From Candidatus Desulfarcum epimagneticum (GTDB taxonomy: Bacteria; Desulfobacterota; Desulfobacteria; Desulfobacterales; CR-1), in the NCBI GenBank assembly GCA_900659855.1, contig CAACVI010000045.1, positions 60,985 through 124,984 on the forward strand: DNA of 64,000 bases. Reading direction: 5' to 3'. How positions within the stretch are numbered: the stretch's first letter is position 1; the number at the start of each line of letters is the position of its first letter. Under the pieces are notes generated by a model, which had not been told where the DNA came from, did no database searches, and saw only the letters and a program-made list of their open reading frames with translations. The translations under genes and the position numbers were made by a program. Below, piece by piece: positions 6,512 through 64,000 of this stretch.

Positions 6512-7717
6512 AAGAAGGTCCTATTCAATGACTTCGCTCACCACTCCGGCCCCGACGGTTCTTCCGCCCTCGCGGATGGCGAACCGGACCTCCTTCTCCA
6601 TGGCGATGGGGGTGATCAGCTCCGCCGATATGCTCACATTATCGCCGGGCATCACCATCTCCACTCCCTCGGGCAATGTCAAAATACCCGTCACATCCGT
6701 GGTCCTGAAATAAAACTGGGGACGGTAGCCGCTGAAAAAAGGCGTGTGACGCCCGCCCTCGTCCTTGCTTAATATATACACCTCCGCCTTGAACTTCGTG
6801 TGAGGCGTGATGGTCCCGGGCTCCGCCACCACCTGGCCGCGCTCCACCTCGTCACGCTTGGTCCCGCGAAGCAGCACACCGATGTTGTCGCCCGCCTGAC
6901 CCTCGTCCAGAAGCTTGCGGAACATCTCCACTCCCGTGCACACCGTCTTGGTGGTCTCACGAATCCCCACCACCTCGATGCTGTCGCTCACATGGATAAT
7001 CCCGCGCTCCACACGGCCCGTCACCACTGTGCCGCGGCCCGAAATGCTGAACACGTCCTCAATGGGCATCAAAAACGGCTTGTCCACATCCCGCTCAGGC
7101 TCGGGAATAAAAGAGTCGATGGCCGCCATCAGGTCAAACACCGGCTTGGCCTCATCGCTGCCCGGATCGTCGCTCTCCAGGGCCTTCAAAGCGCTGCCGT
7201 GAATGATCGGCGTGTCGTCCCCGGGAAACTCATACTTGTCCAGAAGCTCCCGAAGCTCCAGCTCCACCAGCTCAATCAGCTCCTCGTCGTCCACCATGTC
7301 GCATTTGTTCAAAAACACCACGATGCGGGGAACGCCCACCTGACGCGCCAGAAGAATGTGCTCCCGGGTCTGCGGCATGGGGCCGTCGTCCGCCCCCACC
7401 ACCAGAATCGCCCCGTCCATCTGGGCCGCCCCGGTGATCATGTTCTTGATATAGTCGGCGTGGCCCGGACAGTCCACATGGGCGTAATGCCGGGTGTCGG
7501 TCTCGTACTCCACATGCGCCGTGGCGATGGTGATCCCGCGCTCCTTCTCCTCGGGAGCCTTGTCAATCTGATCAAAAGGAACAAAATCCGCCATGCCCTT
7601 GAGTCCCATATGCTTGGTGATAGCGGCCGTCAACGTCGTCTTCCCATGGTCAATGTGGCCAATGGTCCCCACATTCACATGGGGCTTCGTCCGCTCAAAC
7701 TTTTCCTTCGCCATCTT
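6512..7717. repeat. About 1.2 kb direct repeat (tuf copy 1), apparently identical to 21486..22691
   Basis: The sense translation and several alternative-frame and antisense ORF translations in the track are identical between the two loci. Flanks diverge just outside the CDS. Confidence 0.85.
6521..7714 (-). CDS. tuf: Elongation factor Tu, copy 1 (397 aa)
   Basis: [28 protein letters not shown]... The long ORF 6521..8110 is an in-frame upstream read-through overlapping rpsG. The true ATG is at 7714. Confidence 0.97.
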
Positions 7718-59730: not shown

Positions 59731-60930
59731 TTATTCCGCCGCGCCCCGGCCGGTCATGCCCTTCAGAAGATCCCGCATGCGCCATACCTGGGAATCGGTG
59801 GCCGTCTCCCCCTTTTTAACAAAAACGCTTCCGTCCTGGTAGTCCAGCGGACCGGTGAAAAGGTTCACGGCCCCGGAGCCCAAATCCTGAATAAAGGCGT
59901 CCAGGGATTTTTTCGCGTTTGCCGAAAGCCCTTTTCCCGGGATGAACCCCACGGGGCTGGAGTCGGGATCGTTGATGTTCTTCCAGTCGGGATGGGACCA
60001 TATCCATTCCGATTCCCACCGGCCCGCCCGAAGCTTTTTGATAAAATTCACATAATCCGGTCCCCAGTTAAAGTACGGGACCCCCAGGCAGACCTCCGGG
60101 GCGCTCCCGCACGCCCCCACATAATCGTATGGAACGGCCCACACGCGTTTGCCTTCCCGGCGCTTCTGATCGGCCACCACCAGGGCCTCGGTGGTGTCGA
60201 TGCCCGAGATGACCACGTCATGGCCCGAGTTGAAAAAATTCCGCGTCACCTGGGTGGGATCCGCCGTGACGCCCGGAATGTTGAACCAGAAGCCGATCCA
60301 GGTGACCTTGAACGTCAAATCCTTCGGGTCCTTTCCCAGGACCTTTTCCCAGGCGTATCGGGCGCCCAGGTAGGCGGAGGCGGTCAGCCTGCGGGTCTCT
60401 TCGTTCAAAAGGGGGCCCAGGTAGGCCAGCTTGCCGGTCTTGGTGGAAAGGGCCGCCGCGAAACCGGCCATCATCTTGCCGTACTCCATGCGCCCCATAA
60501 GATTGCTCAAATTTTTCGGGGCCTTTCCCGTCAGAACGTCGTCTCCTGAAACATGGATAAAACGGACGCCCGGGTACATGAGAGCGGCCTGACGGGCTCC
60601 GTCCTTCATGTCATCGGAGTTGGCGATGATCAGCCGGGCGCCTTTCTCGACCATATCCTCCACCAGCTGGGGGACGGTGACGCCGGGCCGGTCCGAGGGA
60701 TTGACCTTGTCGATATAAATCATCCGGGTCCCGGGGATTTTTTTCTCCACATACTTCCCGGCCTCGAAATGGGCCTGGCTCCAGCCCCGGTCATTGCGCG
60801 GCCCCACCAGAAGGAGGCCGAAGACCCATTCTTTTTCAGCGGCCCGGACGGAATGGGCCGGGGCCATCATCAGCATGGACAGCGCCACGGCGACGGCGAA
60901 GATGGATCCAAAGGTTTTTTTATTCATCAT
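59731..60930 (-). CDS. BMP-family (basic membrane protein/PnrA-like) substrate-binding protein
   Basis: Start at MMNKKTFGSIFAVAVALSMLMMAPAHS (GGAGG 8 nt upstream). Heads the transporter operon. Confidence 0.8.
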   Translation of the reverse strand: MMNKKTFGSIFAVAVALSMLMMAPAHSVRAAEKEWVFGLLLVGPRNDRGWSQAHFEAGKYVEKKIPGTRMIYIDKVNPSDRPGVTVPQLVEDMVEKGARLIIANSDDMKDGARQAALMYPGVRFIHVSGDDVLTGKAPKNLSNLMGRMEYGKMMAGFAAALSTKTGKLAYLGPLLNEETRRLTASAYLGARYAWEKVLGKDPKDLTFKVTWIGFWFNIPGVTADPTQVTRNFFNSGHDVVISGIDTTEALVVADQKRREGKRVWAVPYDYVGACGSAPEVCLGVPYFNWGPDYVNFIKKLRAGRWESEWIWSHPDWKNINDPDSSPVGFIPGKGLSANAKKSLDAFIQDLGSGAVNLFTGPLDYQDGSVFVKKGETATDSQVWRMRDLLKGMTGRGAAE

Positions 60931-61153
60931 AACAGGCCTCCTCCCCCATATCAAAAAAGGAATAAAAGATTAAAACGGCTGACGACTTTAAAAAACATGT
61001 TTGTCTCTTTCCCCCCTTATAAAAAAACCCCGCCCCCAGGTCAAGGAAAACTCCTCGTCCGCCCATATTGACATCCGGCCGCAGTCATGTTAACCCTGTG
61101 GGACAGACGAGGCGTTTTTTCAAGCGATTCAAAAAAGACAAAAGGCCCCCAAA

Positions 61154-61843
61154 ATGGACTTCACGCCCTCTCCCATACAGACCCTGGCTCTCTGGCGTCT
61201 TTTGTTCTCCGACGACCCGGCGCCCATGCAGTCCAGGCTCAAGCCCCGTCTGACCCCGGCCCAGAGAAAGGAGCTGGCCGACGCCGGTCTTATTTGTCTT
61301 TCAAAGCGTGGGCGGGCCTTTTATGTGGAGCTGACGGAAAAAGCCTGGGCCTGGGCCGAAAAAAACCTCGACGCGCCTTTTTCCCGCACCGTCAACGCGG
61401 CGGCGCCTTTCGCCTGTCTGCTTTCAGCGCTCAAGCGCCACATGGCGGCCGAAAACATCCCCCTGACCGAAATATTGCGCCCCAAAGAAAACGGCGAAAA
61501 ACATAAAAAAGCCGAAACGTCCCGAAACGCGGTTTCGCCCGGGCGGGGAATTCGCCGAGGCAAAGACCATGAGAAAGACCAGGGAAAAAAAAGGATCAAA
61601 GCCGCCTGCCTGGAGGCGTCCGGCGGAAGATTAAACGTTCGGATCCGCCTGGCCCGTCTGCGCGAAATCGCGGATGACATTCCCCCCCGGACCCTGGAGG
61701 CGATCATCCGAGACATGCAATTGGACGGGACCGCGGTTCTCTACCCCTTGGACGACCCGTCTGAAATCACGCCGGAGGACGAGGCGGCGGCCGTCTTAGT
61801 CATGGGGAGAAAAAACCACATCCTGTACATGACCTCGATGTGA
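61154..61843 (+). CDS. Hypothetical protein, possibly two winged-helix-like modules separated by a basic linker
   Basis: 229 aa. N-terminal LTPAQRKELADAGLICLSKRGRAFYVELTEKAW and C-terminal IADDIPPRTLEAIIRDMQLDGTAVLYPLDDPSEI resemble wHTH segments (pattern-level impression only). The RBS is weak and the start uncertain. Confidence 0.45.
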   Translation: MDFTPSPIQTLALWRLLFSDDPAPMQSRLKPRLTPAQRKELADAGLICLSKRGRAFYVELTEKAWAWAEKNLDAPFSRTVNAAAPFACLLSALKRHMAAENIPLTEILRPKENGEKHKKAETSRNAVSPGRGIRRGKDHEKDQGKKRIKAACLEASGGRLNVRIRLARLREIADDIPPRTLEAIIRDMQLDGTAVLYPLDDPSEITPEDEAAAVLVMGRKNHILYMTSM

Positions 61844-61905
61844 CGCCCCGGCGGGCGTCCGGTTTGGTTTAAAACACTTTTAAAAATAAAAAAAGGCCCT
61901 GACGC

Positions 61906-64000
61906 ATGATTCATCCCGGCGCCCTTGAAAACGCGGATTTCAACTGGACCCTGAACGTCAAAAGCGTGTGGGAGCCCTCTCCCCATGATGTCCCGGAACT
62001 GCGCCGGGAATTTAAAAAAAACATCTCCCGGGACCTGGACCAGATGGCGGAAAGCCCCTCTTCCCTGTCGCCCCTGGGGCATGTGCTGTCCGGGCCGGCC
62101 GGCTCGGGGAAAACCCACCTGCTGGGGGCGCTGAGACGGGAAAATGAAAAAAAAATCGGCGCCTTCATCCTGGCGGACATGACCCACGCCCCGGACTTTT
62201 CCGAAACCATCCTTTCGGGATATGTGGACTCCCTGCAACGGCCCCCGGGAAACGACCCCAACGGGGCGCCCCAGTTCCAGGAATGGCTCACCCATATGCT
62301 TTTCGGCCTCAAACTGGCCAAACCCGGCCAACGGCCCGCTAAAAAACTCTCCAAATCCGGCTATAAAAAACTCATCCGCCAAAAAGAGAAAATCACCCGC
62401 CGTCTTTTAAGCCTCTACCCCGCTGAAATGCGCGCCCATAAAGACGCCCTGACGGCCCTTCTGCTTCTCAACTCCGCCTCTCCCGGGATTTCCCAGGTCG
62501 GGTACCAGTGGCTGCGGGGCCTTGAGATCCAAAAAAACGAAAAAGACGCCTTCGGCTTCGCCCGGACAAGGGAAAACCCAAACCGGATCATCGCCTCCCT
62601 CTCCCGGCTCATGAGCCTCAAGGGGCCCGCCATACTGGCCCTGGACCAGCTCGACTCCACTGTGATCCGACGCCATCTGGCCTCGGGAGACGGCTCCGGC
62701 GGGCGTCTGTCCGACCGGCAGGGTTTGTCCATGTCGCGCCTGGAGGAGATCGGCGGCGGGCTCATGGCGCTTCGGGACATGACCTCAAGGACCCTCATCG
62801 TGGTCTCATGTCTGGAGACCACCTGGCAGGCGCTCATGGAAAAAACCGTGGCCTCCGCCGCCCACCGCTTTCATCCGCCCCATCGCCTGGGGCCGGTCAT
62901 CAAAAGCAAAACCGCCGAAAGCATAGCGGCGGTAAGACTCGCCCCGGCGTACAAAAAGGCGAAATTTATCCCCCCCTACCCCTCCTGGCCCTTCCGGCCG
63001 TCGGCCTTTGAAACCGCCCGGGAGCTTTTCCCCCGGGAAATACTCCAGAGATGCGACCGCCATCGGGAGATGTGCCTCAAACAAAAAAAGATTCAGGAGC
63101 TGACCTCCTTCGGCGGGCCGGGGTCGGACGCCCAGCCGGAAAGCCCCCCCGGCGGCACGAACCAGTCGGGCAAGCGGGATGAATGGAACCACACATTCAA
63201 AAACCTGAAAAAAAACGCCGACATCTCCAGAATTTTCGAGGGGGAAGACGGGGAAACACGCGCGGCCGCGCTCATTCAAAGCGCGTTTAAAAGCTTTGTT
63301 TGCGAAAACGATTTTCCGAAAAACGCCGAAACGGCCCTGGAAACCGAATTCCGGGGGGACGGGAAATACCCGCCCCTTCACGCCCGGATCCAGGTCATTT
63401 TCCCCTCTTCAAAAAACAGCGGGGGAAAAAACCGGGAAAGGCATTTTTGCGCCCGGGCCATCTTCAAAACCCATGTCATCGCCTTCCAGGCGCGTCTGAA
63501 AGCCGCCATGACCGCCTCCGGGATCGGCCCGAACGCGCCGGACAGACGCATGGTCATAGCGTCCCTGGGGCCGGCGGCGCCCCCGGGGGGCGAAAAAACC
63601 CTGGCCATGGTGGACTGGTTCAAAGAAAACGGGGGAATCTTCGCAAGGCTTTCAGATGACGATCTTAAAACCATGCTGGCCCTCCAGGCCATGGAAAACG
63701 AGCGAAGCCCCGGGTTTCTTAACTGGCTCAAGGAACAAAAACCCGCCACAGGGCTGGAATTCATGGAGAGCGCGACGCCTTTTCTCCTTGAAAAAAAGCC
63801 GGAAAAGCCCCCTGCCCCTCTTCCGGATTCCCCCGCGCCCGACTCCGCCCCCCAGGGGGATTTTGTCCTGGGTCTGGGCGCCGACCCGGACCCCGAAGCG
63901 GATCCGGCGGACGCGGAAAAACAAAAAACCGCCGACGTCATCGCCGTCCCCCCGGGAATTTTCGCCGGGGCCTCCATGATCCTTTCCGGCGAGGGGTCCG
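61906..64000 (+). CDS. Large P-loop NTPase of unknown family (at least 698 aa, open at the window end)
   Basis: Not in the ORF track because there is no in-window stop. Manual frame-1 translation: MIHPGALENADFNWTL...HVLSGPAGSGKTHLLGALRRE (Walker A)...GPAILALDQLDS (Walker B-like)...TLIVVSCLETTW. Frame 1 stays open to 64000 in my manual translation, and the track lists no frame-1 plus-strand ORF in this interval. Confidence 0.7.
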   Translation, partial: MIHPGALENADFNWTLNVKSVWEPSPHDVPELRREFKKNISRDLDQMAESPSSLSPLGHVLSGPAGSGKTHLLGALRRENEKKIGAFILADMTHAPDFSETILSGYVDSLQRPPGNDPNGAPQFQEWLTHMLFGLKLAKPGQRPAKKLSKSGYKKLIRQKEKITRRLLSLYPAEMRAHKDALTALLLLNSASPGISQVGYQWLRGLEIQKNEKDAFGFARTRENPNRIIASLSRLMSLKGPAILALDQLDSTVIRRHLASGDGSGGRLSDRQGLSMSRLEEIGGGLMALRDMTSRTLIVVSCLETTWQALMEKTVASAAHRFHPPHRLGPVIKSKTAESIAAVRLAPAYKKAKFIPPYPSWPFRPSAFETARELFPREILQRCDRHREMCLKQKKIQELTSFGGPGSDAQPESPPGGTNQSGKRDEWNHTFKNLKKNADISRIFEGEDGETRAAALIQSAFKSFVCENDFPKNAETALETEFRGDGKYPPLHARIQVIFPSSKNSGGKNRERHFCARAIFKTHVIAFQARLKAAMTASGIGPNAPDRRMVIASLGPAAPPGGEKTLAMVDWFKENGGIFARLSDDDLKTMLALQAMENERSPGFLNWLKEQKPATGLEFMESATPFLLEKKPEKPPAPLPDSPAPDSAPQGDFVLGLGADPDPEADPADAEKQKTADVIAVPPGIFAGASMILSGEGS

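Follow-up and report, generated by a model that had tools for sequence, protein, structure and literature searches.

The locus and its two genes

We analysed a window of 64,000 nt (the whole stretch of DNA under study; positions 60985-124984 of contig CAACVI010000045.1, C45) from the 3.26-Mb genome of Candidatus Desulfarcum epimagneticum, which is 99.7% complete and has a GC content of 54%. At the 3′ end of the window lies a pair of adjacent genes, one encoding a small tandem winged-helix protein (gene A) and the other a nucleoside triphosphatase (NTPase; gene B). Judged by sequence, this pair belongs to the Orc/CDC6-HerA/FtsK 'capture systems', of which it is a reduced, nuclease-less variant. 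The class was predicted by comparative genomics, from the coupling of HerA/FtsK domains to a specific Orc/CDC6 AAA+ ATPase in mobile neighbourhoods (Rakesh, Aravind and Krishnan, Nucleic Acids Res 2024, PMC10853773).

A first-pass annotation of this DNA had described a 229-amino-acid (aa) open reading frame (ORF), a gap of 62 nt and a second ORF that stays open for at least 698 codons, and the ORF listing contains all three. Gene A occupies 61154-61843 and encodes the 229-aa protein. Gene B begins at 61906, beyond the 62-nt gap, and is still unclosed at 64000, with 698 codons inside the window. Extension along the contig places its end 692 nt further on, at window-equivalent position 64692. 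Both genes lie on the plus strand, together with the domains, motifs and intergenic hairpin described for them below. At 928 aa, the full product of gene B falls short of the 'giant' NTPase that had been envisaged. The anticipation of more domains beyond the window was right in that a further domain exists, but there is exactly one, an FtsK/HerA-type P-loop domain.

On the 5′ side of gene A, the sequence shows a divergent intergenic region (60955-61153) that adjoins a minus-strand gene at 59731-60954. It is presumed to hold a putative promoter and the leader of the A-B unit, and contains a hairpin with a T-tract at 61053-61120. Between the two genes, a GC-rich 7-bp hairpin (GACGCCC-CGGC-GGGCGTC) extends over the stop codon of gene A (61842-61859), as seen from sequence and folding energy; the latter is unexceptional (z=0.33). 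In the spacer as a whole (61842-61905), this hairpin is followed by GGTTTGGTTT, a weak T-tract, and an A/T-rich run up to the start of gene B. A similar AAAGGCCC element stands approximately 8-10 nt before the ATG of gene A and of gene B.

Domain architecture of the two proteins

The structural model of gene A (predicted local distance difference test, pLDDT, 84.7) consists of two modules, each made of helices plus a beta-hairpin, at residues 1-110 and 134-229, with a disordered Lys/Arg/Gly-rich linker between them at residues 113-132. Its fold matches are weak (E at least 0.01), and all of them are winged-helix proteins: MarR, PadR, ArsR and tandem winged-helix proteins such as ScpB. The model and these matches support, at the level of fold class, a double winged helix-turn-helix (wHTH) protein, and agree with the earlier description of two winged-helix segments separated by a Lys/Arg/Gly-rich linker. 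We expect gene A to act as a tandem winged-helix adaptor that would bind DNA.

The AlphaFold model of gene B, built from a 44-sequence alignment (pLDDT 81.9), has four parts. Residues 1-405 (61906-63120) form an Orc/Cdc6-like AAA+ domain according to Pfam, Foldseek and the model, with a long helical insert at residues 98-237. The Walker A motif GPAGSGKT(HLL) is intact (residues 63-70, 62092-62115). It is accompanied by a Walker B-like ILALDQLD(S) (residues 243-250, 62632-62655) and the strand LIVVSCLETTW (residues 297-307, 62794-62826). These three motifs and the Pro/Asp-rich linker discussed below had all been noticed in the first-pass annotation, which proposed from them an ORC/AAA_16/STAND-like core. 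The ORC/AAA_16 part of that proposal agrees with a match to Pfam AAA_16 (E=1.4e-6, 29.3 bits, below the 32.6-bit gathering cut-off) and with a Foldseek match of the N-terminal region to archaeal (Pyrobaculum) Cdc6, 1fnn (E=8.5e-5 over 467 columns). The STAND part does not stand, as similarity to Avs2 is limited to the P-loop. Searches of the PDB with the N-terminal profile returned weak, generic AAA+ P-loop matches only. On the Foldseek and Pfam matches, gene B would supply the Orc/CDC6-family AAA+ ATPase of the capture systems.

AAA+ proteins usually carry a Glu directly after the Walker B Asp, and its substitution by Gln classically permits ATP binding while slowing hydrolysis. Throughout the family studied here, the N-terminal Walker B motif has the form hhhhDQxD, and the Gln after the Asp is at least 90% conserved. 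Its conservation across the family suggests that the N-terminal domain is an ATP switch, not a fast motor.

The model places an alpha/beta middle domain at residues 420-632 (63163-63801). Its core elements follow the order alpha-beta-beta-beta-alpha-beta (helix 449-467, strands 475-479, 493-499 and 510-518, helix 524-538, strand 547-553), and a helical, wHTH-like segment comes after this core at residues 563-611. Residues H492, R494, E511, H513, R517, R530 and R547 are invariant in the family, and the canonical D/ExK residues are absent. Neither the comparison of the middle-domain profile with PDB and Pfam nor hhalign against the DUF559 family gave a match. The domain sits at the point where an inactive restriction endonuclease (REase) domain is inserted in capture systems, between the AAA+ core and the Orc-type C-terminal wHTH (PMC10853773). 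A REase fold therefore seems plausible for it, given this position and the modelled topology. Next comes a disordered Pro/Asp/Ala-rich linker (residues 633-677, 63802-63936; pLDDT below 50), the length of which differs among homologs.

Residues 683-928 (63952-64692, within the window as far as 64000) form the FtsK/HerA-type P-loop domain identified by profile and Foldseek searches, which the model shows as a compact fold at residues 683-920. Its Walker A motif is a deviant GEGSGKN (residues 695-701), which starts at 63988 and straddles the window end at 64000; its Walker B motif, LLIFDEA (residues 819-825), lies beyond the window. Against PDB sequences, the family profile of gene B finds HerA proteins only (E down to 7e-16), and Foldseek matches the domain to defence-type and archaeal HerA structures (E down to 3e-8). 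It also aligns with the minimal FtsK/HerA packaging ATPase B204 (template modelling score 0.77, target-normalised) and matches an FtsK/HerA-type terminase among the PHROGs (E=2e-7); the Pfam matches, to DUF87/TrwB, are sub-threshold. Gene B hence carries the HerA/FtsK P-loop domain that the capture systems possess.

A linked and patchily distributed gene pair

In the first homolog search, homologs of gene B were approximately 1050-1100 aa long and at most 36% identical to it. An exhaustive search (E<1e-30) defined a family of 385 clusters at 50% identity. At least 543 matches occur in species-representative genomes from six or more phyla, with members in Cyanobacteria, Planctomycetota, Myxococcota, Desulfobacterota, Alphaproteobacteria and Actinomycetota.

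We surveyed gene linkage in 85 loci, using our own ORF calling and hidden Markov models. A homolog of gene A lies immediately upstream of the gene B homolog, on the same strand, in 83 of the 85; in the other two, the NTPase starts less than 150 nt from a contig end. So constant an association, in six or more phyla, goes beyond chance. The two genes therefore co-occur in other genomes almost without exception, and the earlier treatment of them as a unit, here predicted to be co-transcribed, is upheld by this linkage. In the relatives examined, the stop and start codons of the A and B homologs overlap, leaving no spacer. The sole other recurrent neighbour is a gene of approximately 330-380 aa directly upstream of the A homolog, present in 54 of the 85 loci, the product of which ends in a DUF559/MTES_1575 domain with the Vsr-type REase fold.

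This combination of family architecture and gene context matches the class described in PMC10853773. Consequently the pair can be placed, although the first-pass annotation had been unable to assign it to any named family. The same annotation had seen in the layout a resemblance to conflict systems, which fits the predicted capture-system class.

Within genera, the family is present in some species and missing from others. The NTPase occurs in 34 of 81 species of Methylobacterium (the genus of locus L067) and in 30 of 61 species of Micromonospora (the genus of L077), where at least three divergent variants occupy different positions. None of 60 other genomes from the order of the source genome encodes it. 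Carriage on plasmids amounts to 3 of 72,556 plasmid records, and no phage carries it. Neighbours in relatives include genes for a WYL regulator, toxin-antitoxin systems, an EAD1-WD40 STAND protein, Fic and a nucleotidyltransferase. This patchy presence and these neighbours argue for an accessory conflict system that is exchanged between genomes. Neither a housekeeping role nor plasmid maintenance fits, and no housekeeping family matches the NTPase.

Interrupted copies were also encountered. In Desulfococcaceae bacterium HSG9 (L033:5977-9224), the NTPase is divided between two overlapping ORFs of 566 and 520 aa, with the break inside the middle domain and both the linker and the HerA part downstream of it. 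A natural split, a frameshift and a sequencing error could each account for this. In Methylobacterium and Micromonospora, too, some copies of the NTPase are split or contain stops.

A reduced sub-clade without the nuclease

No DUF559 gene lies beside the A-B pair in the source genome, and the 199-bp spacer upstream of gene A holds no remnant of one. Nor is a DUF559 nuclease encoded in trans anywhere in this 99.7%-complete genome. The HerA-derived domain is reduced as well. It is missing a helical insert of approximately 115 aa, the WTPG segment that precedes it and the C-terminal PLCLSxHP tail, all present in the long-form relatives, and its Walker A-to-B spacing is approximately 125 aa as against approximately 246 aa in those forms. 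The second Walker A motif reads GKN here, GKD in L017 and GKT in all other surveyed loci, while the Gln of the FATQ motif is replaced by E here and by K in L017. Although the Thr and the Gln are lost, the HerA-type site retains the Walker A Lys and the Walker B DE. Change has been specific to this domain. Among positions that are at least 90% conserved in 42 long-form relatives, retention in the source copy is 48 of 53 for the Orc-like domain and 20 of 23 for the middle domain, but only 39 of 104 for HerA.

A search with gene A recovered closer relatives, at 82, 60, 56 and 52% identity, and their contigs carry the same nuclease-less pair. Members of the sub-clade so defined are the source pair, loci L017-L020 and the contigs that carry P0051 and P0057. 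Gene B and the L017 NTPase (P0170) share 48% identity, are colinear over the full length and have the same reduced HerA domain; identity by domain is 61% for Orc, 45% for the middle domain and 52% for HerA. Since the reduced form is common to both lineages, which are colinear at 48% identity, the reduction is old and not the decay of a single genome.

Between L017 and L020, which are relatives and not the source copy, the ratio of nonsynonymous to synonymous substitution rates (dN/dS) is 0.29 for gene A and, across the N-terminal 353 codons only, 0.22 for gene B. These values indicate purifying selection on the sub-clade. As HerA is as well conserved as the other domains within the sub-clade and dN/dS is low, the altered domain would seem to be under a new constraint and not in neutral drift.

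We also considered whether all short HerA forms make up one clade, and rejected this in part. L056, P0256 and P0270 have no insert yet keep GK[T/S] and the tail, so the insert has been lost more than once. The form without the Thr and the tail is confined to the source copy and the L017 group, and a homology search with the C-terminal region found no further members of the sub-clade.

Divergently upstream of the pair in L017, L018 and L020 lie a Type II-like N6_N4 DNA methyltransferase and a CoaE-like kinase gene. Two different contigs thus have this arrangement in common (L017:6122-8772 and L020:649-2466), these being the closest relatives with available DNA; the methyltransferase matches PADLOC MTase_II at E=9e-151, and L017 adds a DUF6125 gene. 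A methyltransferase was rejected as a conserved feature of the pair: L056 has dehydrogenases in this place and the source locus an ABC transporter, and the nearest homolog in the source genome is on another contig.

Genomic neighbourhood

In the source genome, the A-B pair is flanked by an ABC-transporter operon and tRNA genes. Moving 3′ from gene B, the order is tRNA-His and tRNA-Arg, a CDF transporter, a second tRNA pair and an AT-richer island. This island contains genes for an HNH protein, DUF6650, a SIR2-HerA pair and an integrase, the last two at 4.6-8 kb downstream.

The tRNA-His(GTG)/tRNA-Arg(TCG) pair is present twice, at L002:4924-5100 and 6901-7077 (window-equivalent 64939-65115 and 66916-67092). 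The copies stand just past gene B, on either side of a CDF cation-efflux gene fused to a Nitro_FeMo-Co domain. The duplication looks like the product of an insertion that copied its tRNA target.

The SIR2-HerA anti-phage pair, 4.6 kb downstream (L002:9332-12055, window-equivalent 69347-72070), is a genuine one, recognised by PADLOC at E=8e-36 for SIR2 and E=3e-151 for HerA. It is preceded by the HNH protein, the DUF6650 protein and a 124-aa ORF, in DNA of approximately 45-52% GC. A tyrosine recombinase with a Phage_int_SAM_4 N-terminus, resembling integron integrases, follows on the minus strand (L002:12933-13928). After the recombinase, from L002:14000 to 19000, the GC content is 32-40%, against 54% for the genome. 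This stretch and a cassette-like toxin-antitoxin islet at 52.5-56.2 kb mark the region as rich in accessory DNA.

Proposed function and alternative explanations

We lean, with confidence only a little better than even, towards the view that the pair is a two-gene operon of the capture family, predicted to serve as a horizontally exchanged anti-invader cassette, the reduced copy of which still forms an ATP-dependent DNA-binding or sensing complex. For the class as a whole, the published proposal is that the Orc-like part brings the apparatus to its place on DNA, while HerA/FtsK intercepts invader DNA and translocates it towards a nuclease (PMC10853773; repeated in PMC12839542). In complete cassettes, the gene A homolog and the Orc-like module would bind target DNA and load onto it in an ATP-dependent manner, the HerA/FtsK domain would oligomerise as a ring and translocate the DNA, and the DUF559 (Vsr-fold) nuclease, encoded just upstream, would cut it. 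The source copy cannot cut by means of the family's usual nuclease. With the Mg-coordinating Thr and the conserved Gln gone and the nuclease absent, both pumping and cutting are unlikely for it. Its two proteins may still assemble as an ATP-dependent DNA-binding or sensing complex, in which the HerA remnant would serve mainly as a scaffold for oligomerisation or nucleotide binding and not as a pump.

Several observations weigh against this proposal. The Orc/Cdc6 assignment consists of one fold match and one sub-threshold Pfam match, and the possible REase fold of the middle domain comes from modelled topology and the literature only. The dN/dS values belong to relatives and, for gene B, to its N-terminal part. 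The source locus has a 62-nt spacer and a hairpin where its relatives are translationally coupled, and this spacing may mean that coupling has loosened. The source copy shows no effector, and the defence role of the class is itself a prediction from gene context.

The main rival is that the source pair is a functionless relic, its nuclease lost and its HerA motor eroded, which persists because decay is slow in a GC-rich gene. The absence of the DUF559 gene, the low retention of conserved positions in HerA, the losses of the Walker A Thr, the FATQ Gln, the insert and the tail, and the end of tight coupling between A and B are all what a relic would show, and in other genera, copies that are split or contain stops are common. 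A relic would, however, hardly share its reduced form with L017, L018 and L019 at 48% identity and in colinear order, with intact ORFs of more than 900 codons kept in both lineages. Within the sub-clade, the identity of HerA is not below that of the other domains and dN/dS is low; the Orc and middle domains retain approximately 90% of their conserved positions; and approximately 30% of long-form loci are likewise without the nuclease gene. We therefore regard decay to a relic as unlikely, if still a serious competitor. A different account is needed if the pair is a self-sufficient, restriction-like system of two genes, in which the middle domain is a working nuclease, or a phosphate-binding catalytic site, with His substitutions. 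The order of its elements is that of the REase fold, and its invariant residues cluster on strands 2 and 3 and the next helix, where the residues of PD...(D/E)xK enzymes sit. Conservation this strict would be unusual for a purely inactive domain, and of the loci with room upstream, approximately 30% have no DUF559. Against this, the middle domain has neither the canonical acidic residues nor the Lys, the inserted domain is classed as inactive in PMC10853773, and the domain, the fold of which comes from prediction, has no sequence or profile similarity to any nuclease. These objections make a self-sufficient system improbable. Of similarly low probability is a bolder combination, in which the whole reduced sub-clade is a self-sufficient two-gene system, the HerA-derived domain is a non-hydrolysing scaffold for oligomerisation or nucleotide sensing, and the cluster from H492 to R547 is the real catalytic or DNA-end-sensing site. 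Were that cluster active, the domain labelled an inactive REase throughout the class would in fact be an active centre of non-canonical type, and DUF559 a mere accessory.

It could also be supposed that the pair has nothing to do with defence and is a module that handles DNA for a mobile element or the chromosome, its Orc-like part working as initiator or loader and its FtsK-like part as a pump, in replication, segregation or transfer. Such roles are known elsewhere for Orc/Cdc6 and FtsK/HerA domains, the neighbourhoods of the class combine features of mobile elements and defence systems (PMC10853773), and the locus adjoins tRNA genes and an integrase-bearing island. Yet the family is nearly absent from plasmids and wholly absent from phages, the 85 loci surveyed show no linked integrase, relaxase or replication gene, and its recurrent third gene is a nuclease. 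Presence in only 40-50% of species within genera also speaks against a core chromosomal role, and we hold such a module to be very unlikely. Least credible of all, and close to dismissal, is a wholly unplaced, novel STAND-like system of defence centred on a giant multidomain NTPase. PADLOC, NCBIfam and Pfam give no family-level assignment, and there are weak, P-loop-only matches to Avs2 (E about 0.03). But these matches cover approximately 20-30 residues, the protein is 928 aa long, and its architecture and context match the class in PMC10853773.

If the capture-family reading of the source pair is correct, its reduction is informative. Orc/CDC6-HerA/FtsK cassettes are widespread, occurring in at least 543 species-representative genomes and in 40-50% of species in some genera, and are absent as a system from PADLOC, Pfam and NCBIfam. 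The minimised pair would mark their irreducible core, namely the tandem-wHTH protein with the Orc-like and middle domains, and would show that whatever selection maintains the pair needs neither the HerA motor nor the nuclease. It also represents a compact construct for the biochemistry of the Orc-like switch and the middle domain. Should the pair prove inert, it would instead be a record of how such cassettes decay.

Comparison with known systems

PADLOC gave no system-level match for the two proteins, in partial or full-length form, or for their relatives, in agreement with the earlier view that BREX, DISARM, Septu and Lamassu do not fit. The NCBIfam and PHROG matches of the pair are at P-loop level or of FtsK/HerA type and indicate no family. 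AVAST/Avs and other STAND NTPases were considered and rejected: Avs2 matches reach E=0.03-0.4 only, confined to the surroundings of the P-loop, and gene B contains neither STAND repeats nor an effector domain.

In PADLOC, the C-terminal domain matches both HerA and MADS mad8, the best match being mad8 (PDLC04140; E=3e-8, and 5e-27 for a Paludisphaera homolog). The genuine HerA encoded nearby matches mad8 at 8e-22, so this match reflects generic FtsK/HerA similarity. A MADS locus (mad1-mad8 with a methyltransferase) was rejected for the pair, which has no other MADS gene and no linked methyltransferase. In MANTIS/Gao_RL (bioRxiv 10.64898/2026.09.23.753747) and BREX of the BrxC type, an AAA+ ATPase and a small co-factor load onto DNA and hand over to an effector. 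The likeness is one of analogy only, for the A-B pair has no PADLOC match to their components, no PglZ and no linked methyltransferase.

Closer in fold are SIR2-HerA and DUF4297-HerA (PDB 8wld, 8xau, 8ziq, 9c1m), which share the FtsK/HerA P-loop fold of the gene B C-terminus and in which a HerA ring scaffolds and activates the effector. Gene B differs from them in having no N-terminal HAS-barrel and in carrying its 246-aa HerA remnant fused behind an Orc-like ATPase. Membership of these systems was rejected, as neither a SIR2 nor a DUF4297 partner is encoded in the A-B operon. Among solved structures, the one nearest to the C-terminal domain in size and shape is the STIV2 genome-packaging NTPase B204 (PDB 4kfu). 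Sequence identity between them is approximately 13-14%, and B204 differs in being a free-standing viral packaging ATPase and in having a canonical Walker A motif.

The closest correspondence is with the capture systems themselves. Their core domains are an Orc/CDC6 ATPase, an inactive REase, an active REase, HerA/FtsK and wHTH; one version of HerA/FtsK carries a 4-helix insert, and a separate protein has 2-4 wHTH domains (PMC10853773). The source copy departs from this plan in having no active REase gene in its operon. Their neighbourhoods 'usually' encode an active REase (PMC10853773), which makes the enzyme a typical feature and not an obligatory one. Compared with its capture-system relatives, the source copy also has a HerA domain without the insert, WTPG and PLCLSxHP, with GKN for GKT and FATE for FATQ, and its A and B genes are not translationally coupled. 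The reduced sub-clade to which it belongs is not described in the main text of PMC10853773. The relatives share with the class an active REase-fold nuclease, in the form of DUF559 in 54 of 85 loci, and a mobile, patchy distribution; the long forms among them share the HerA helical insert (approximately 115 aa, the 4-helix insert of PMC10853773). Common to the capture systems and to the family represented here are an Orc/Cdc6-type AAA+ domain, an additional alpha/beta domain with a wHTH, a HerA/FtsK domain and, as gene A, a separate protein with multiple wHTH domains.

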